A stretch of 64,000 nucleotides of DNA from an uncultured Candidatus Saccharibacteria bacterium. Lineage in GTDB: Bacteria; Patescibacteriota; Saccharimonadia; Saccharimonadales; 2-12-FULL-41-12. Every line of letters starts with the position of its first letter. Within the stretch, counting starts at the first letter, position 1. The translations under genes and the position numbers were made by a program. Below, piece after piece: positions 19,922 through 60,652 of the stretch. Below the pieces are notes generated by a model. It did not search any database. It saw nothing but the letters and a program-made list of their open reading frames with translations, and was not told where the DNA came from. The stretch is taken from the NCBI GenBank assembly GCA_947085495.1, contig CAMTWJ010000002.1:38599-102598 (forward strand), written 5' to 3'.

Positions 19922-21451
19922 ATGCAGTGGTTAGAAAAAATAGTTGATGAAATACTATCTCGTCATCCAGACGGGGAGATAGTGGTTAGCTCTGGGGTCT
20001 CTCCTTCAGGTACATATCACTTGGGTACGCTCAGGGAAGTTTTGACTGCAGAAGCAGTAGCTCGTGAGGTTCGCAGGCGAGGTCGCACCAGCCGCCATAT
20101 ACATGTGGTTGATGATCTTGATGTATTCCGAAAAGTTCCCGTTGGCGTGCCAGAAACACACAGTAAATATTTGGGTATGCCGCTCTGCGATGTACCAGCA
20201 CCGGATGGTTCGGACATGTCGTATGCAGATTATTATCTGAAAGACCTTTTGGACGCTGCAAAAGAACTTCGGCTCGATGTAGAGATTATGAGAGCTCACG
20301 AAAAATATCGTGAAGGCTATTTTGTTCCAGTTATCGAAAAAACCCTCGTAAATATAGATACGATTCGAAAAATTTTGGCGGAAGTATCTGGCCGAGAACT
20401 AGACAATCAATGGTCGCCCATACAAATTATAGAAGATGGATACCTTAAAAACCGTCAATTTGTGAGCGTTGATACTGATACAAAAGAGCTTGTCTATAAA
20501 GACAAAGACGGCAATGACGCTACAAAAAAATATGATACCGGAGAAGTAAAGCTAAGCTGGAGAATAGATTGGCCAGCCCGTTGGTCGCTGTTAAACGTAA
20601 ATGCAGAGCCATTTGGGCGAGATCATGCCACAAAGGGTGGATCATACGATACGGGCAAGCGAATTGTAAAAGAAGTTTTTGACGGCGATGCACCGTTGCC
20701 GATTCCATATAACTTTATAAATAAGTCTGGTGAAACCAAGAAAATGAGCAAAAGTGCAGGCGATACTATTACTGCAGCCGAGCTTTTAACTGTTTTGCCT
20801 GCAGAAATTGTTTGGTACTTTATTCTGCGATTTGCACCAGACAAGCAACTCTTTTTCGATGAAGGTCCCACGCTTATTCGTTTGGTTGATGAGTATGCTC
20901 AGCTTCAAGCAAAACCAGACAAAACAGATCAGGAAAAGCATTTGCTAGAGCTTTGCAATGAACAAATCGAGCATCAGACAGTTAGTAATGTGCCATTTTC
21001 ACATCTTGTAGCAAGTTATCAAGCTTCGTTAAAAGACGCAGGTAAAACCATTGAAGTTATTGAGCGAACAGAGCACGGAGAAACTGCAAAAGAACAGAAA
21101 GAAATAATTGTTCGTGAGCTTACTTTTATAGATAATTGGCTAAAAAATTGGGCGCCAGAAGATGTAGTGTTTGATCTTATTGATACACCCCCAACAGATG
21201 CAAGCGAGCAGCAAAAAGAATTTTTGGCACAACTTGCAAGTGCAGTTGAAAAAGCTCCAGAGGATGCTGACGGTAATTGGTTCCACCAAACAATTTACGA
21301 CCTCAAAGACAAAGTTGGCATGGAGCCAAAAGAAATGTTCTCGACACTTTACCAAGTGCTAATCGGCAAGAATGCTGGCCCTCGGGCTGGTTGGTTCCTT
21401 AGTATTTTGCCCCGAGACTGGCTTATTAAGAGACTCAACCTGGAGGGTTGA
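19922..21451 (+). CDS. lysK: class I lysyl-tRNA synthetase
   Basis: SGVSPSGTYHLGTLREV (HIGH-type motif) and KMSKSAG. About 509 aa, as expected for class I LysRS. Confidence 0.88.
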   Translation: MQWLEKIVDEILSRHPDGEIVVSSGVSPSGTYHLGTLREVLTAEAVAREVRRRGRTSRHIHVVDDLDVFRKVPVGVPETHSKYLGMPLCDVPAPDGSDMSYADYYLKDLLDAAKELRLDVEIMRAHEKYREGYFVPVIEKTLVNIDTIRKILAEVSGRELDNQWSPIQIIEDGYLKNRQFVSVDTDTKELVYKDKDGNDATKKYDTGEVKLSWRIDWPARWSLLNVNAEPFGRDHATKGGSYDTGKRIVKEVFDGDAPLPIPYNFINKSGETKKMSKSAGDTITAAELLTVLPAEIVWYFILRFAPDKQLFFDEGPTLIRLVDEYAQLQAKPDKTDQEKHLLELCNEQIEHQTVSNVPFSHLVASYQASLKDAGKTIEVIERTEHGETAKEQKEIIVRELTFIDNWLKNWAPEDVVFDLIDTPPTDASEQQKEFLAQLASAVEKAPEDADGNWFHQTIYDLKDKVGMEPKEMFSTLYQVLIGKNAGPRAGWFLSILPRDWLIKRLNLEG

Positions 21452-21959: not shown

Positions 21960-22745
21960 ATGAAAGCACCAAGTAAAAAAGTATTACAAGAACAGATTAA
22001 AAAAATAAATATGGCCACCGCAGTAGTCTCTGCAGTTTTGGCAGTTGTGTCAGCAACTTTGCTCGCAACGACCAATGTTAGCCTATGGCTGAGCTATATG
22101 GCTAGAGACCTTTTGGCTCCTGGCGAAAAAGTAGTTTTGGCCCCAGCCTTTAAGGAATTATTTAGTGTTGAAGCTCGCTATCTATTGGCCGGAATTTTTG
22201 TTTTTTCTGCAGTTTTATCAGTTCTGTTGTTTACCAAACTCCGAGCAAACTACGAGGCAACCCTAAAAGCTAAAGTATCTGGCTACAAGTGGGTATTTGC
22301 AGGTCTTACCGCTGCATTTTTGTTTGAACTCGTAAACTTGCTTGCTGGCATTAGCGACCTTGCAACCCTAAAAGTTGTCGGTGGATTAGTGTTTATTGCA
22401 TCACTCCTTTGTTGGATTGCCGAGCGAGAAAACGATGGCGCAACCAAGAAGAAATGGCTCGCTTTTATTGCAGCAATTTTTGCAGGTATTGGCGCCTGGT
22501 TCCCGCTAGCAGGCAGCTTCTTTGGCACTGCTATTTACGGCATGGAACGATTCACCTGGGGTGTATATGCGCTAGCAGGTACGCTGCTCATTAGCTTTAT
22601 CTTGTATGGCTTAAATCAATACTATTACCTCTCTGGCCGAAAAGGCTGGAAAGAGTACTTGTTTATCGAAAGAAACCATCTAGCAATTAACTTTGCTAGC
22701 TTACTTGCCTTTGGCTTAATTGCAATCGCAGCGTTCTACAAGTAA
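21960..22745 (+). CDS. heliorhodopsin-like seven-TM protein lacking the retinal-binding lysine
   Basis: 261 aa, seven TM segments. Gapless by-eye match to heliorhodopsin: YEATLKAKVSGYKWV..GISDL..LLCWIAERE and QYYYLSGRKGWKEYLFIERNH. The TM7 position of the Schiff-base Lys is Leu248. The only Lys in the last helix region is the C-terminal residue. Confidence 0.6.
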   Translation: MKAPSKKVLQEQIKKINMATAVVSAVLAVVSATLLATTNVSLWLSYMARDLLAPGEKVVLAPAFKELFSVEARYLLAGIFVFSAVLSVLLFTKLRANYEATLKAKVSGYKWVFAGLTAAFLFELVNLLAGISDLATLKVVGGLVFIASLLCWIAERENDGATKKKWLAFIAAIFAGIGAWFPLAGSFFGTAIYGMERFTWGVYALAGTLLISFILYGLNQYYYLSGRKGWKEYLFIERNHLAINFASLLAFGLIAIAAFYK

Positions 22746-38046: not shown

Positions 38047-39633
38047 TTGGCTAATCAAACAAAATTTATTTTTGTTACCGGAGGTGTATTATCCGGACTT
38101 GGGAAGGGCATAACAGCCGCTTCCATTGCCCGCACCCTTCAAGCTCGTGGCCTCAGAGTAAACTTACAGAAACTTGATCCGTACCTAAACGTTGATGCTG
38201 GCACACTTAACCCAGCAGAACACGGTGAATGTTTTGTAACCGCCGATGGTGCAGAGACTGACTTAGATCTTGGTCACTACGAACGTTTTCTTGATATTGA
38301 GCTAACGCAATCGAGTAGTGTTATGAGCGGTCGTTTACTGCTTGGTCTTATCCAAGACGAACGAGCAGGCAAATTCTTGGGCCAGACCGTCCAAGTTCTG
38401 CCTCATTTCACCGGTGCGATCAAGGAGCAAGTTCTAAAGGCTGGCGAAGGTTTTGATGTACACATTGTAGAAATTGGCGGAACTGTTGGCGATTATGAAA
38501 GCCCGGCATTTATAGAAGCTATAAGGGAGCTCGGACTTACTCTTGGCAAGAAGAATTGCGTGTATGTGCACGTGGTTTACTTACCGTATTTGGGAGCAAG
38601 CCAAGAAATTAAGACCAAACCTGCACAGAATGCACTGAAAGACTTACGGGCAGTTGGTATTGTCCCAGATGTACTAGTAGCTCGCAGTGAGGTAGAGCCT
38701 CCTACAGAGGTCCGTGGCAAGTTAAGCCTCCATGGTGGTGTCGACAGAGACGCTGTCGTATTGCTACCAAATGCCAAGACAATCTATCAGGTGCCGTTAA
38801 CTCTAGAAGAGCAGGGCATCGGCAAACTTATTGCAGAACGACTTGGTTTTGGCGGAAATGGGGTTGACCTCAAAGACTGGAAGTCTATGGTTGATCGAGC
38901 ACTTGCTTCTCCAGAAAAAACTTACAAAGTCGGCGTTGTTGCCAAATATCTAGACAACCAAGATACCTATATATCTGTTTTCGAGGCAGTACGAGCAGCT
39001 GCTTGGGCTGAAGGCGTATCACTTGACCTTGCGTGGGTAAACGCCGAGAAGTTAACTGACACAAAAGAGCTAGAGCAGTACGATGGCCTACTAGTTCCTG
39101 GTGGCTTTGGTGAGCGTGGTGTCGAAGGCAAGATAACGGCTGCAGAGTTTGCTCTGGATACTAAAAAACCGTATCTTGGACTTTGCTTAGGACTTCAGGT
39201 GGCAGTTATTGCAGCGGCTCGTCGTGCGGGGCTAAAAGATGCCAATTCTACCGAGTTTTCAGACAGCACAAAAAATCCAGTTATTGCCACAATGAACGGC
39301 CAAAAGGGCAAAGAAAACACTGGTGGTACCATGCGACTTGGCAACTACCCATGTGTGCTCGAAAAAGGCAGTAAATCAGCCGACCTGTACGGAGGCCTGG
39401 AGATAGATGAACGCCATCGACATCGTTATGAATGCAACAATGATTACCGAGATCAATACGGATCTTGGGGCATCGAAGCAGTTGGCCTAAGCCCAGATGA
39501 AAAATTAGTTGAAGTTATTGAGGGCACAGACCATCCATTCTTCGTGGCTAGCCAATTTCATCCAGAGTTTAATTCTCGTCCAACCCGGCCTCATCCACTG
39601 TTTGTTGGCTTTGTCCGTAGCTTGAAAAAATAG
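38047..39633 (+). CDS. pyrG: CTP synthase
   Basis: TTG start. KFIFVTGGVLSGLGKGI, a glutamine amidotransferase domain (GLCLGLQ), and HRHRYE. Confidence 0.96.
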   Translation: MANQTKFIFVTGGVLSGLGKGITAASIARTLQARGLRVNLQKLDPYLNVDAGTLNPAEHGECFVTADGAETDLDLGHYERFLDIELTQSSSVMSGRLLLGLIQDERAGKFLGQTVQVLPHFTGAIKEQVLKAGEGFDVHIVEIGGTVGDYESPAFIEAIRELGLTLGKKNCVYVHVVYLPYLGASQEIKTKPAQNALKDLRAVGIVPDVLVARSEVEPPTEVRGKLSLHGGVDRDAVVLLPNAKTIYQVPLTLEEQGIGKLIAERLGFGGNGVDLKDWKSMVDRALASPEKTYKVGVVAKYLDNQDTYISVFEAVRAAAWAEGVSLDLAWVNAEKLTDTKELEQYDGLLVPGGFGERGVEGKITAAEFALDTKKPYLGLCLGLQVAVIAAARRAGLKDANSTEFSDSTKNPVIATMNGQKGKENTGGTMRLGNYPCVLEKGSKSADLYGGLEIDERHRHRYECNNDYRDQYGSWGIEAVGLSPDEKLVEVIEGTDHPFFVASQFHPEFNSRPTRPHPLFVGFVRSLKK

Positions 39634-53862: not shown

Positions 53863-54864
53863 ATGGCCGGAAAGTTTGAAATTATGGGTCCACTTGATAT
53901 GGTGCGACAACTAAACGCTACAGCAGGGGATTATGATGTGTATGCAAATATGTATATGCAAGATGATGAGCATGAACAAAAGAAGTTCCAGGGCAGAGTA
54001 GATGCATTAAATGCTTCCCACCCACTTATTGGCGAGCCGGTTATTGTGTATGGTGATATTTTGTCGATATCAATGGATGAAGAGGGTAGAGAATTTACGG
54101 CCGTTGTCCCTGGTAGTATACAGAGCGATAGCAGAGAATTGGCACGAGTTGACAGAGAGTATTTAGCAGAGGTGATGGGTGAGCACCACGTTCCAGTGGT
54201 AGGAGTTTATAGAGGATATGATATTTGGAAGACATTTGATATTAACTCTCAAGAGTGGGTGCACCGAGTTACCCATAAAATAGGCAGAGAAACCGTAGAG
54301 TATACCGATCCATATGGGGCAGACCACAGTGTCTCGCACAATACATTTATATATGCATGGGGCAGCAAGATTTTTCCAATTGACCCTGTTAACGCCCATA
54401 GCCTTAAAGATTTAAGAAACGATAAAATTGTCCGATATGCTTTTGATAACATTGCGTTTGATGCAGAAATAAGTAGGCCAAATGCGATTATGAAAATAGG
54501 GGAGATAGCGCAAAAGGCTTTTTCTGGGTGGATAGAGCAACCAGAGATTGATCAACAGAGGATTAGTTACCTCAACAGTTTGGGTTTATTGGAAGGTTTA
54601 AGTATTATTTCCCAAGATTTTCTTAAGGTTAGCGGTTACGCTGACGAACCGAAAGTAAGTGTGCCTTCGCCCCCTGATCAGCCTTATGCTCAAATTGAGC
54701 CTGGGTTTTTTGTTTTAGCAAGAAGCTACAAACGAGATAGTCTTGGCCAGGCGTTTTATAGAAACGGGAAAGATCTCTGCATAAAAACTCCTATCGCTGA
54801 TGGAGAGGCTGTAGTAGTGCCAGTTCCAAATATAGTAGGCTTTGCAGAAGAAATCACAGGATAG
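53863..54864 (+). CDS. hypothetical protein (ORFan)
   Basis: 333 aa. No motif recognised. Confidence 0.55.
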   Translation: MAGKFEIMGPLDMVRQLNATAGDYDVYANMYMQDDEHEQKKFQGRVDALNASHPLIGEPVIVYGDILSISMDEEGREFTAVVPGSIQSDSRELARVDREYLAEVMGEHHVPVVGVYRGYDIWKTFDINSQEWVHRVTHKIGRETVEYTDPYGADHSVSHNTFIYAWGSKIFPIDPVNAHSLKDLRNDKIVRYAFDNIAFDAEISRPNAIMKIGEIAQKAFSGWIEQPEIDQQRISYLNSLGLLEGLSIISQDFLKVSGYADEPKVSVPSPPDQPYAQIEPGFFVLARSYKRDSLGQAFYRNGKDLCIKTPIADGEAVVVPVPNIVGFAEEITG

Positions 54865-54866
54865 TA

Positions 54867-54895
54867 TTGCTGATTAGCATACTTTATGTTAATAT
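54867..54895 (+). promoter_or_regulatory. promoter TTGCTG-17-TAATAT with TGt extended -10, facing the structured locus
   Basis: TTGCTG at 54867-54872, TGT at 54887-54889, TAATAT at 54890-54895. The predicted +1 is about 54902. Confidence 0.5.
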
Positions 54896-54901
54896 ATAGT
54901 T

Positions 54902-55310
54902 TGCTAGAAGTTTTTTACAAAAAGTACTACGTCTAACGTAGAGTGAGCATTAACAAGAGATCTTTCTCGCAGAGGAAAATAGAATAAGGTAGGGATGACA
55001 TGGAAGTGTCAGAGCAACGTCTTTCCGGCATGATGCCTGGACATTGAACCTTATTTGCTTTTTCTGCCCAAAAGAAGCATGAGAGAAGCTGCCAAGAACG
55101 GCAATCGGCATGAGCAAGGATGCTCAACTCTCGTGGCTTACTACGAATCTTCCTGGCCGAGAGGAAGTGAGAGCACATAGACATGATTGTCTACCACCAC
55201 CAGCAGGCATGGATGCCTCCCGCTCTCAGTTTGGTTGTGTAATTATGAGTCCGAGCTTTGATAGCTCCTCGTATATCCCCACAAACACCAAACTCCACTC
55301 ACACTTTTTT
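54902..55310 (+). ncRNA. candidate ~400-nt structured RNA of unknown class (alternatively a very long cis-regulatory leader); strand tentative
   Basis: A 475-bp gap with no credible ORF. At least 12 local or nested helices. Two stems contain T:G wobbles that would be A:C mismatches on the other strand. Ends in a T6 run at 55305-55310. Confidence 0.45.
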
Positions 55311-55339
55311 ATAAATAACTTCTAGCATTTTTCTTATCA

Positions 55340-55798
55340 ATGTATTTGAGCTTCTGGGTAGGGTGGTATGATAGATATGAAATGGGAGCCCCAAGAAGTT
55401 TTCGCTACGACTCGTTGGCGCACAAGCTTTCACAGTTTGTTCTGCCAAAAGCACACAGTAATGTGATGAGTATTGTTAATGTCGAGCACTTGGATGACGA
55501 CGAGCTAGTTAAGATACAAAGTCGAGTTGGCTTTTCGTATGTTTTACTTAGCCAGCACAAAATAGGGACAATGGATGAGCTCAAGCAACGGATAGAAAAG
55601 TGGTGCAGTGAGCCCATAGACAAATTTATCGCACCCAGGAAACAGACTAGTTTTGAAGAAACACTGGGCGCACGATTTTATAAAAAGCACGACACAAAAG
55701 CTACTGCCACATGGATGCCGTATGCGGTGCCAGCTGGACACGAGTATGCTTTTTTGGCATTACTTAAACCAAAGGAATTAAACGATGAATCAGAATAA
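55340..55798 (+). CDS. hypothetical protein (152 aa); start uncertain
   Basis: No SD at ATG 55340. Overlaps the NYN gene start by 14 nt. No motif recognised. Confidence 0.45.
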   Translation: MYLSFWVGWYDRYEMGAPRSFRYDSLAHKLSQFVLPKAHSNVMSIVNVEHLDDDELVKIQSRVGFSYVLLSQHKIGTMDELKQRIEKWCSEPIDKFIAPRKQTSFEETLGARFYKKHDTKATATWMPYAVPAGHEYAFLALLKPKELNDESE

Positions 55799-59076: not shown

Positions 59077-59442
59077 ATGTCAAACCTGGACTACTTTGAG
59101 CGAAAGCTAGACTCCAAGCGCAGGCTAACTATACCTGCCGAGCTTCGTCATGCTTTTGCAAATGGGGTAGTGGTAACCAGGGGATTCGGCGACTATCTTC
59201 ACCTGTACCCAAAAGAGGTATGGGACCAGTTGGTAGAACCACGACTTGACGGCGACATCCTGGATGAGCGCATTGCTGATCTGAATGTACAGTTTCGAAT
59301 GGGTAAAGTTGAAACTGTTATTGATGAGAAGCAGGGGCGTATCACTCTAGAACAACATCAGCTAGATTTTGCTGGTATTGGGAAAGATGTTGTTGCTGTT
59401 GGAGTTGGACGATATTGGCGGTTAATGGCTCCAGAAAAATAA
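59077..59442 (+). CDS. mraZ: transcriptional regulator MraZ (short, 121 aa)
   Basis: Two SpoVT/AbrB-like halves: LDSKRRLTIPAELR and IDEKQGRITLEQHQLDFAGI. Confidence 0.88.
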   Translation: MSNLDYFERKLDSKRRLTIPAELRHAFANGVVVTRGFGDYLHLYPKEVWDQLVEPRLDGDILDERIADLNVQFRMGKVETVIDEKQGRITLEQHQLDFAGIGKDVVAVGVGRYWRLMAPEK

Positions 59443-59475
59443 TCTGGAAGGCCAGTACATTAAAAATTCGGTAGT

Positions 59476-59504
59476 CAAATAGCGAAGCCGAGGTTAGCTA
59501 TTTG
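59476..59504 (+). other. 8-bp hairpin 34 nt after the mraZ stop
   Basis: CAAATAGC (59476-59483) pairs with GCTATTTG (59497-59504) around a 13-nt loop. No T tract follows. Confidence 0.5.
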
Positions 59505-59767
59505 GCAGTCAGTAAGTGGATCATAGGGATAACCACTATAAAACCCTCGTACTTTTTGTCAAAAACACCTCCCAAAACTCCACCTCACACATAAGTCTCT
59601 AAAAACTTACAAGGAAGTTTTATCTATCAACACTCCAAAAAGTTAATAGAATTACTAAAATTTCCTAAATCAAAAACAAAAACAACAAAATACAAAAAAC
59701 TGGCTGCTGAATAGGTGATCTTGTAAAATAAAAACGTTTTACAGGCACACAGTGCCCCAAAATAAAA

Positions 59768-60652
59768 ATGAATCAAAACAAACACAAACCGGTTCTTTTA
59801 AGCGAAGTAAAAGACATTTTAAGCCCCGCAAAGGGCGAACGATACTTGGATGTAACTGCAGGCTATGGTGGCCATGCGAGCGCAGTTATTGACGCTATAG
59901 GCAGCCAAGGTGCTGCTGTTCTGGTCGACAGAGACCAAAATGCGATTAGTTATCTAAACGAAATGTTCAAAAATCGTTCGGAAGTGAAAATTGTAAAAAA
60001 CGATTTTCTGTCTGCAAGCAAAGATTTGCAGGCAACAGGTGCAAAGTTTGATCTGATTCTTGCAGATCTTGGAGTATCATCACCGCACCTTGACAATGCC
60101 ATGCGTGGTTTTTCTTTCAAAAGTGAAGGACCATTGGACATGCGAATGGACGAAGATCAAGAAATAACGGCTTCAGATATCGTAAACACTGCTGATCAAG
60201 CAGAACTTGTACGTATCTTGCGGCTGTATGGGGAAGTTAGAAATGCACCCAGAGTTTCACGGTTGATCATAGAACACCGTCCGTTCCATTCCACCACGGA
60301 ATTGGCTAGTGTAGTCGCTAAAACTTCCAAACGCTGGGAGAAGACTCATCCTGCAACCAAAGTGTTCCAGGCGCTGAGGATAGCAGTCAATCAAGAATTG
60401 GAGCAGTTGCAGCAAGCACTTCCAATCTGGATCGATCTGTTAAATGACAATGGTCGTTTAGCTGTGATTTCGTTTCACAGTCTAGAAGATCGTTTGGTCA
60501 AACAAGCGTTTGCAGAGTATGGGGCAAGTGGTTATGACGCAGTTGTGCGTATATTGACCAAGCACCCAATTGAAGGCGACGAATCCGAAATAGTTTTTAA
60601 TCCGCGTGCACGTAGTGCAAAACTACGAGCCGTAGCGAAAATAAAAATATAG
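59768..60652 (+). CDS. rsmH: 16S rRNA (cytosine1402-N4)-methyltransferase
   Basis: HKPVLLSEV, YLDVTAGYGGHA, LADLGVSSPHLD and ISFHSLEDR. Confidence 0.95.
   Translation: MNQNKHKPVLLSEVKDILSPAKGERYLDVTAGYGGHASAVIDAIGSQGAAVLVDRDQNAISYLNEMFKNRSEVKIVKNDFLSASKDLQATGAKFDLILADLGVSSPHLDNAMRGFSFKSEGPLDMRMDEDQEITASDIVNTADQAELVRILRLYGEVRNAPRVSRLIIEHRPFHSTTELASVVAKTSKRWEKTHPATKVFQALRIAVNQELEQLQQALPIWIDLLNDNGRLAVISFHSLEDRLVKQAFAEYGASGYDAVVRILTKHPIEGDESEIVFNPRARSAKLRAVAKIKI

Follow-up and report, generated by a model that had tools for sequence, protein, structure and literature searches.

The 64-kb window analysed here, i.e. the whole stretch of 64,000 nucleotides at positions 38,599 to 102,598 of contig CAMTWJ010000002.1 from an uncultured Candidatus Saccharibacteria bacterium, holds between the open reading frames (ORFs) ORF333 and ORF152 a gene for a structured non-coding RNA (ncRNA), which very probably belongs to an undescribed family. 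The gene is real, non-coding, structured, read from the plus strand, expressed, modular and dispensable. Its product would be about 430 nt long (~54902-55332, plus strand), perhaps trimmed to ~365 nt. What is new is the RNA family and its build, that is tandem three-way-junction units set in a closed helix and present in variable copy number; the working principle is likely one already known. An earlier examination of the letters alone (hereafter the sequence-only reading) had proposed a plus-strand structured RNA that it could assign to no class, and this proposal holds in view of the missing family match, the covariation, the excess of G·U pairs, the promoter and the RNA contigs.

Searches with Rfam 15 at gathering threshold over the whole 64 kb gave 0 matches, and in E-value mode (to E = 10) the copies of the window and of two related loci, designated L025 and L003, returned only noise above E = 0.3 (microRNA, small nucleolar RNA and similar models); ARAGORN found no transfer RNA (tRNA) and no transfer-messenger RNA (tmRNA). 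With the Rfam check now run, these empty results bear out the earlier impression that the locus does not fit RNase P, tmRNA, signal recognition particle (SRP) RNA or 6S RNA. In the literature on CsrA and structured RNAs in the candidate phyla radiation (CPR), Patescibacteria and Saccharibacteria, no description of this RNA was found.

Regarding the limits of the gap, the stop codon of ORF333 at 54864 forms its upstream edge, and the true ATG of ORF152 is probably at 55382 (138 aa) rather than at 55340, because the homologues of ORF152 (seven database relatives) are 132-143 aa long and begin at MGAPR. The non-coding gap described by the sequence-only reading is thus real, with 54865-55381 non-coding, but its length would be ~517 nt instead of 475 bp once ORF152 is restarted. 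It had also been called poor in ORFs, which agrees with the frames found: one of 71 aa on the plus strand and two of 83 and 55 aa on the minus strand, none of which matches Pfam. The longest frames of the window, of L021 and of L003 do not share a reading frame, that of L021 being a 59-aa version with another end point and L003 opening another frame. A protein search with a chimeric query joining the spurious ORFs of the gap RNA found no relatives. A divergent housekeeping RNA (RNase P, 6S, SRP or tmRNA), one of three options held open by the sequence-only reading, or a decayed or small coding gene, is barely credible, and both readings were rejected. The size of the RNA and its closing helix do resemble those of stable housekeeping RNAs, and two overlapping ORFs of 71 and 83 aa are present in the window; yet no model matches even at E = 10 in three homologues, ARAGORN is negative, the number of units varies and the RNA is missing at the locus in three sister lineages, just as the ORFs are kept neither in frame nor in length and have neither Pfam match nor protein relatives.

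The plus strand at 54896-55320 folds with a minimum free energy (MFE) of -129.2 kcal/mol (z = -4.0), none of 100 shuffles being as good, and the plus strand of the L025 copy reaches z = -5.2. The same architecture is obtained from three alignments (alignments A1, A2 and A6) and from single-sequence folds (Table 1). The two ends of the RNA are joined by a closing helix, P1, of ~22 bp, whose duplex energy lies between -18 and -23 kcal/mol in each of the four full-length homologues. The interior follows a tandem plan of units of ~90 nt, each made of a small 5' hairpin and then a three-way junction, in which a GAGAG(C)/(G)CUCUC stem encloses a variable hairpin and an apical hairpin, the latter adjoining the 3' strand of the stem and having the form stem-CA-NGGA-UG-stem. 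Outside the units, hairpin H1 reads UACGC-UUU-GCGUA in L025, a compensatory change from U-A to C-G (alignment A2), and is absent in L003, and the hairpin of the 3' domain (AUGAG..GAGCU-UUGAU-AGCUC..CUCGU) looks like a stripped A unit.

Table 1. Features of the RNA gene, its promoter and the covering metatranscriptome contigs (window coordinates)
Feature	Position	Strand	Sequence, basis or remark
Promoter TTGCTG-17-TGtTAATAT	54867-95	+	-35 at 54867-72, TGt at 54887-89, -10 at 54890-95
Closing helix P1, 5' strand	54902-54925	+	UGCUAGAAGU (54902-11, invariant) plus AU-rich extension; RNAalifold, pair counts
Hairpin H1, CUACGU-CUA-ACGUAG	54927-54941	+	MFE
Unit B0, degenerate	54958-55067	+	RNAalifold, MFE, pair counts
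B0 junction stem AAUAAGG/CCUUAUU	54983-89 with 55049-55	+	Double changes at pairs 86-160 and 89-157 of alignment A6
B0 hairpin UGACAU-GGAA-GUGUCA	54996-55011	+	
B0 hairpin GGCA-UGA-UGCC	55027-37	+	
Unit A1	55075-55139	+	Invariant in four homologues
A1 junction stem AAGCAUGAGAG/CUCUCGUGGCUU	55075-85 with 55128-39	+	Includes conserved U·G
A1 variable hairpin	55090-55103	+	
A1 apical hairpin UGAGCA-AGGA-UGCUCA	55111-26	+	Apical-hairpin covariation
Unit B1	55149-55228	+	RNAalifold, pair counts
B1 5' hairpin CUUCC-UGGCCGAGA-GGAAG	55149-67	+	Compensatory C/G insertion in L021 and L003
B1 junction stem UGAGAGC/GCUCUCA	55168-74 with 55222-28	+	
B1 variable hairpin UAGACA-UGAU-UGUCUA	55178-93	+	
B1 apical hairpin AGGCA-UGGA-UGCCU	55205-18	+	Outer pair varies (A-U/U-A/G-C/G·U)
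3' domain helix GUUUG/CAAAC	55229-33 with 55282-86	+	Alternative in the window: 55229-35/55287-93
3' domain hairpin UAUGAG/CUCGUA	55244-49/55268-73	+	
3' domain inner hairpin GAGCU-UUGAU-AGCUC	55253-67	+	
CA-rich single strand closing the 3' domain	55274-55303	+	
Closing helix P1, 3' strand	55304-27	+	Extension 55304-16; invariant ACUUCUAGCA at 55318-27
Extended -10-like element TGGTATGAT, outside the RNA	55364-72	+	9 nt before the ATG at 55382-84
X2 contig	54937-55270 and 31 further bases, reaching ~55303		Metatranscriptome
X7 contig	54937-55088		Metatranscriptome
X25 contig	55047-55153		Metatranscriptome

The helices that the sequence-only reading had listed are in the sequence, and most of them recur in relatives, namely those at 54927-41, 54996-55011, 55027-37 and 55149-67, as do the junctions closed by CATGAGAG/CTCTCGTG and by GAGAGC/GCTCTC, each with both of its inner stems, and the GTTTG/CAAAC helix around 55244-73. 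The hairpins at 54963-77 and 55057-78 are also in the sequence, but they compete with a long-range helix (54969-77/55059-67) as alternative enclosures of unit B0, and both RNAalifold, run on four sequences, and MFE lean towards the long-range helix. The main closing helix, UGCUAGAAGU with ACUUCUAGCA, had been missed altogether, and the T6 run at 55305-10 proved to be the 3' strand of the P1 extension and no terminator tail, the run of U that follows the helix lying at 55328-32.

Helices with covariation, on which the sequence-only reading had made its RNA depend, are found among the distinct sequences available, i.e. four full-length and two partial. The RNAalifold consensus of the four-sequence core alignment (A6) comprises 94 pairs with 94.6% of the cells paired, and 14 of these pairs are changed on both sides as against 4.3±1.7 in column shuffles (0/500 reach 14), a count to be read with the reservation that the consensus structure was derived from the very alignment in which the changes were counted, and from four sequences. 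When the partners were slid by 1-3 columns as a control, at most 5 double-changed pairs were seen. The double changes are located in the B0 junction stem, the inner B0 helices and the B1 5' hairpin, and also in the outer pair of the B1 apical hairpin and in the helix and inner hairpin of the 3' domain, where an inner pair changes from U-A to A-U in L025, L024 and L026. Covariation neither supports nor contradicts the GAGAG/CUCUC stems and the closing helix, which are without any variation. A 30-nt block of unit A1 is identical in L003, where identity in the flanking genes extends over 12-14 nt at most; by this measure the RNA is better conserved than its flanking genes.

That the plus strand is the functional one had been argued from two wobble pairs, and the whole alignment is in line with it: the paired cells include 26 G·U and 3 A·C, G·U being read as C·A on the opposite strand, and the U·G within CAUGAGAG/CUCUCGUG is kept in all copies. 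RNAalifold gives -72.2 for the plus strand and -67.3 for the minus strand, and in the window the minus-strand fold has z = -2.15. The good promoter said to face into the gap is present and is kept in four relatives, L021, L025, L003 and L027, as TTGATA/TTGCAA/TTGCAG/TTGAAA-17-TGnTA(A/G)TAT; a simple consensus scanner omitted it, its -35 element matching the consensus at 3/6 positions only. Transcription is predicted to start at ~54902, the first base of the closing helix. At the other end, UUUUU stands directly 3' of this helix and the tail GCAUUU(U/C)(U/C)CUUAU is kept in all carriers, and the transcription unit would end at the helix and its U-run (55328-32). A terminator-like match on the minus strand (54941-27) corresponds to H1 and the AU-rich helix extension read backwards.

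Expression is visible in public data. The 31-mers of the element are held at 11-48% by 20 public runs from groundwater, soil, rhizosphere, bioreactor and aquatic samples, and RNA contigs of 334, 152 and 107 nt lie on the element in three of four metatranscriptomes (Table 1), these three coming from bioreactor and soil studies. The surrounding 19 kb yielded only 30-60-nt fragments of conserved words, except in the mraZ-rsmH region. No strand can be read from such contigs, and strain variation may determine where they end; the coincidence of the X2 contig with the exact interior of the closing helix is no more than a hint at possible trimming of that helix.

The flanking gene order, ORF333-like, ORF152-like, NYN, PNPOx and GH1, is common to eight lineages. 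A search of 5.8 billion entries gave only 7 homologue clusters for ORF152 and 5 for ORF333, and since the flanking proteins have so few clusters, the lineage is rare. No meaningful match was found when the AlphaFold model of ORF152 (predicted local distance difference test, pLDDT, 79) was compared with the PDB by Foldseek. The sole PADLOC match was that of the NYN gene to a LabA-like NYN nuclease model (E 1.6e-09), which is uninformative on the RNA.

Five of these lineages carry the RNA at exactly this site (the window; L021; L025; L024 with L026; L003 with L004 and L007), L021 coming from a metagenome-collection scan and its RNA being 91% identical to that of the window in the aligned part. 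The copies differ in their number of units, with three in the window (B0, A1 and B1), four in L003 (an extra A) and five in L025 (an extra A and an extra B), the unit number changing by duplication. Three sister lineages, L001, L010 and L027, have the same operon without the RNA, which is dispensable there. In L001 and L010 just 36 nt separate the two flanking genes, and L027 keeps the promoter followed by TTGCT-TC-AGCA, the body being gone precisely between the strands of the closing helix, which we read as a probable deletion scar. Scanning genome contigs for the pattern CATGAGAG-N15-45-GCAAGGATGCTCA gave 8 matches, all due to chance, in unrelated phyla and showing no similarity beyond the pattern; metagenome contigs gave 4, i.e. 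one true match (L021) and three in a conserved coding motif, and viral contigs gave 0. Neither in the 64-kb window nor in the fetched loci did blastn detect a second copy. Because true copies occur only at this site, the element appears to be single-copy, syntenic, vertically inherited and repeatedly lost.

The same distribution bears on the idea of a non-autonomous mobile element, of the miniature inverted-repeat transposable element (MITE) type, or its remnant, in which the closing helix would represent terminal inverted repeats and the patchiness insertion and excision. Inverted repeats TGCTAGAAGTT...AACTTCTAGCA do bound the element, perfect over 10-11 bp (54902-11/55318-27), presence is patchy among close relatives, L027 has its TTGCT-TC-AGCA exactly at the place of the body, and the locus is a hot spot (foreign GC-rich ORF in L024, jump of identity in L021). 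The inverted repeat is equally explained as an RNA helix, however, and the element is single-copy in the 64-kb window and in the fetched loci, every true match from the collections lies at the same syntenic site, no target-site duplication surrounds the repeats, divergence runs roughly in step with the flanks apart from gain and loss of units, and the element has a conserved promoter of its own, covarying helices and expression. A mobile origin is highly improbable on this account.

Several peculiarities of the individual loci deserve a mention in their own right. In L024, a GC-rich ORF of 190 aa (1563-2135) interrupts the RNA gene downstream of both the promoter and the 5' strand of P1; its product, which combines collagen-like GPx repeats with a His-rich stretch and a signal peptide, would be secreted, and the ORF is either a foreign insertion or a chimeric assembly. 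Between L021 and the window, nucleotide identity is 72% in the upstream gene, 91% in the RNA and 96% in the downstream gene, values that suggest recombination with a breakpoint in or close to this locus. In unit A2 of L003 (3679-3750), the 5' strand is tandemly duplicated (CAUGAGA-AGAGAG) and the 3' strand UCUCUCAU can therefore pair in either of two registers, possibly a matter of slippage or of alternative pairing.

Since the RNA lies directly upstream of the ORF152-NYN-PNPOx operon and on the same strand, it could also be a cis-acting leader or attenuator of this operon, sensing a ligand (tandem riboswitch-like aptamers) or a protein (e.g. of the ANTAR type), with the closing helix and U-run terminating transcription or the tail hiding the start codon as its switch. 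In L027 the same promoter precedes ORF152 with the RNA body missing, a U-run follows the closing helix, RNAalifold forms a helix between the tail CAUUU (55326-30) and the start-codon AAAUG in all lineages, and terminated leaders likewise accumulate in RNA-seq. ANTAR proteins recognise hexaloops in pairs, the first base of each being A and the fourth G, a rule satisfied by the loops AAGGAU, AUGGAU and ACGGAU. Against this, the operon lacks the RNA in L001, L010 and L027, the unit number ranges between 3 and 5, an unusual trait in an aptamer that leaves no single constant architecture of this kind, and the start-codon helix, weak (-3.7 kcal/mol) and rich in A and U, shows neither variation nor, in the refined alignment, covariation; the scanned window proteins include no ANTAR protein, and no riboswitch of Rfam matches. 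Besides, the extended -10-like element ahead of the ORF152 ATG is there whether or not the RNA is present: TGnTAnnAT is equally spaced from the ATG of the ORF152 homologue in L001, L010, L027, L025, L024 and L003, and in all eight lineages. ORF152 would thus have its own promoter and a near-leaderless mRNA, and the RNA would be a separate gene rather than an obligatory leader. The giant leader imagined by the sequence-only reading, weakened by this element and by the helix and U-run of the RNA itself, is unlikely although it retains some standing, and of the three options then listed a new ncRNA is the one that fits.

As to what a separate ncRNA gene would do, the apical hairpins give the main clue. 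Nineteen distinct apical hairpins, orthologues and paralogues together, align without gaps, and A-NGGA-U is invariant in them, N being any base. In the stem, the next pair is C-G in 15/19 and the following one G-C in 14/19, with GC, AU, UA, CG or GU further outward; covariation of this stem amounts to 0.408 as against 0.194 in shuffles (0/500 as high), and 72% of its cells are paired as against 27-41% when slid. The four RNAs hold 2, 2, 5 and 3 CA-NGGA-UG hairpins, compared with 0.02-0.03 in 2000 dinucleotide shuffles, and only four further such hairpins exist elsewhere in the 64-kb window on both strands. The consensus obtained for CsrA by systematic evolution of ligands by exponential enrichment (SELEX) is RUACARGGAUGU, in which ACA and GGA do not vary and the GGA is presented by a hairpin loop (PMC4347634). 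The apical hairpins fit it, UACA-CGGA-UGUG of L025 matching 11/12 positions. The second hairpin of several units likewise has A(U/C)GGA(U/C), ~21-31 nt from the first (A1 and B2 of L025, A1 of L003, and the X2/X7 variant), as GU-AUGGAU-AC in L025, AUGGAC in the X2/X7 variant, and ACGGAU in L003 and in B2 of L025. Dimeric CsrA prefers a certain site spacing, and 21-31 nt would suit a two-site dimer. For groundwater ultra-small prokaryotes in general, csrA is reported to be one of the highly expressed genes (PMC9938205).

The best-supported mechanism, put forward tentatively and at somewhat less than an even chance, is that of a multivalent decoy for a CsrA-type protein. The RNA would be transcribed from the extended -10 promoter, its ends would pair in the ~22-bp helix followed by the U-run, the GGA-tipped hairpins would serve as high-affinity sites for a dimeric RNA-binding protein of the CsrA type, and the RNA would act in trans by titrating this protein off mRNAs, as CsrB and RsmZ do. 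A more ambitious form, in which the RNA, closed by its long helix and with one or two CsrA-type GGA hairpins on each unit, founds a new class of repeat-built regulatory RNAs titrating a CsrA-like regulator in a rarely sampled and probably ultra-small, Patescibacteria-like lineage, seems to us rather doubtful.

Several results weigh against this picture. The folding z-scores of L025 do not split the strands (-5.23 for both), and the X26 metatranscriptome has no RNA contig though the DNA of its sample holds the locus. A phmmer search for a CsrA homologue among the ORFs of the 64-kb window found none, and the ~47 window proteins scanned include no RNA-binding regulator. The window copy has two perfect sites, one GGAA hairpin and two degenerate ones (AUGAU and AAGAAC), and its density of GGA, ~1 per 63 nt, is far below that of CsrB. 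Finally, the invariant GAGAG/CUCUC stems and the conserved three-way junctions are foreign to Csr/Rsm RNAs, a hint that the invariant junctions point to another or an additional function.

Such a function, be it scaffolding, oligomerising or catalytic, would engage the NGGA tetraloops and C-rich loops in tertiary or inter-unit contacts, the repeated GAGAG/CUCUC stems permitting alternative or intermolecular pairing. The invariant stems and the three-way junctions are indeed better conserved than the mere presentation of protein sites would require, there are recurrent C-rich loops (CCCCCCCC in L021, AAACCCCCCA in L025 and L024), the 3' strand of the L003 A2 unit can pair with either of two tandem 5' strands, and stable structured RNAs typically have such a closed build, with a long helix at the ends. 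Set against this are the lack of a positive sign of any particular activity, the dispensability of the RNA in sister lineages, and the tetraloop itself, where N is free and the GGA and closing A-U are fixed as a protein site predicts. We consider a structural or catalytic role of this kind rather unlikely, and less likely than the decoy.

Among known systems, the Csr/Rsm small RNAs (sRNAs) of Gammaproteobacteria (CsrB, CsrC, RsmX, RsmY and RsmZ) are also a few hundred nt long, have their own promoter, are dispensable and vary in repeat number, and they display several hairpins with GGA in the loop and CA...UG flanks that fit RUACARGGAUGU (PMC4347634). The present RNA differs from them in its much smaller number of GGA sites (2-3 good ones in the window, 5-7 in L025), in carrying these sites in three-way-junction units with GAGAG/CUCUC stems inside a ~22-bp closing helix, and in belonging to a host that is not proteobacterial by its gene content; in addition, none of the CsrB, CsrC, RsmX, RsmY and RsmZ models matches the copy of the window, of L025 or of L003 at E <= 10. 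As these families are lineage-specific, the lack of a match excludes membership in them but not their mode of action. The TwoAYGGAY motif (RF01731; Weinberg et al., 2010, PMC2864571), whose own function is not known, consists of two neighbouring hairpins with AYGGAY loops, as found here in A1 and B2 of L025, in A1 of L003 and in A1 of X2/X7. Its model matches none of the three copies at E <= 10, the hairpins are here arms of three-way junctions repeated 3-5 times per RNA, and the main loop of unit A, AAGGAU (55111-26), does not fit AYGGAY, only that at 55205-18 (AUGGAU) doing so in the window. Because the model searches gave no match, the RNA is a member of neither group; it would work most like the Csr/Rsm sponges, and at the level of the unit it resembles TwoAYGGAY.

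Two further comparisons are more distant. The ANTAR leaders and the ANTAR-sequestering sRNA EutX/Rli55 combine paired hexaloop hairpins of the A1/G4 type upstream of an operon with a terminator-like element, and a decoy variant of such sites is known; in the RNA described here, GGA and the closing A-U are invariant, which goes beyond A1/G4, and the second hairpin does not overlap a terminator. OLE, GOLLD, ROOL and raiA, large structured ncRNAs of bacteria without an assigned function, share with it a length of several hundred nt, a multi-domain build, a lineage-restricted occurrence and discovery by comparative means, but none of their models matches and this RNA consists of tandem repeats of one unit in varying number.

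Elsewhere in the window, the ORF-free gap at 59443-59767, between mraZ (59077-59442) and rsmH (59768-60652), folds at -75.8 kcal/mol (z = -6.2) with a long-range closing helix of ~20 bp around 59490-59511/59699-59720, and Rfam gave no match for it. Its block at 59562-59606 (AAAACACCTCCCAAAACTCCACCTCACACATAAG...) lies under RNA contigs of three metatranscriptomes, the flanks of which differ from the window; the block contains CACCUCC, which is anti-Shine-Dalgarno-like, and a hairpin AAAACUU-ACAAGG-AAGUUUU that fits the CsrA consensus at 10/12 positions. The similarity of this gap to the 3' end of the RNA studied here is borderline (local score 31 vs a null maximum of 30), and the gap carries a related CA-rich segment. 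It is a candidate second ncRNA, possibly related to the first, and could be a partner in the same CsrA-like circuit.

The remaining gene content includes a heliorhodopsin gene at 21960-22745 (Pfam PF18761, E 1.3e-24) amid housekeeping genes such as those for RRF, GreA, class I lysyl-tRNA synthetase (LysRS), MsrA and RsmE, the LysRS at 19922-21451 being of archaeal type, and a dimeric glycyl-tRNA synthetase. Nearly all genes lie on one strand in long co-directional runs, many orphan ORFs have no Pfam family, the GC content is 44%, and no tRNA gene was found in the 64 kb. These features would fit a bacterium of reduced genome like the Patescibacteria, and the habitats, too, suggest such an organism.

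In Gammaproteobacteria, the control of CsrA by RNA decoys is textbook knowledge; for most other bacteria, the protein FliW is the only CsrA antagonist known to us. Both types of antagonist, RNA and FliW, are listed in PMC4347634. Should the decoy mechanism be correct, its occurrence in a distant reduced-genome lineage would mean that the CsrA-decoy strategy arose more than once, with a number of sites that could be tuned by duplication of units. It would then also be, to our knowledge, the first CsrA-antagonist RNA outside Proteobacteria. The generality of the finding is limited by the narrow distribution of the RNA, found in five lineages, and by its dispensability. Whatever its partner, the RNA is a clean natural example of a structured molecule that gets longer or shorter through duplication of a three-way-junction unit, a trait relevant to both the evolution and the design of RNA, and the decoy, if true, would give a handle on post-transcriptional regulation in organisms not yet grown alone.

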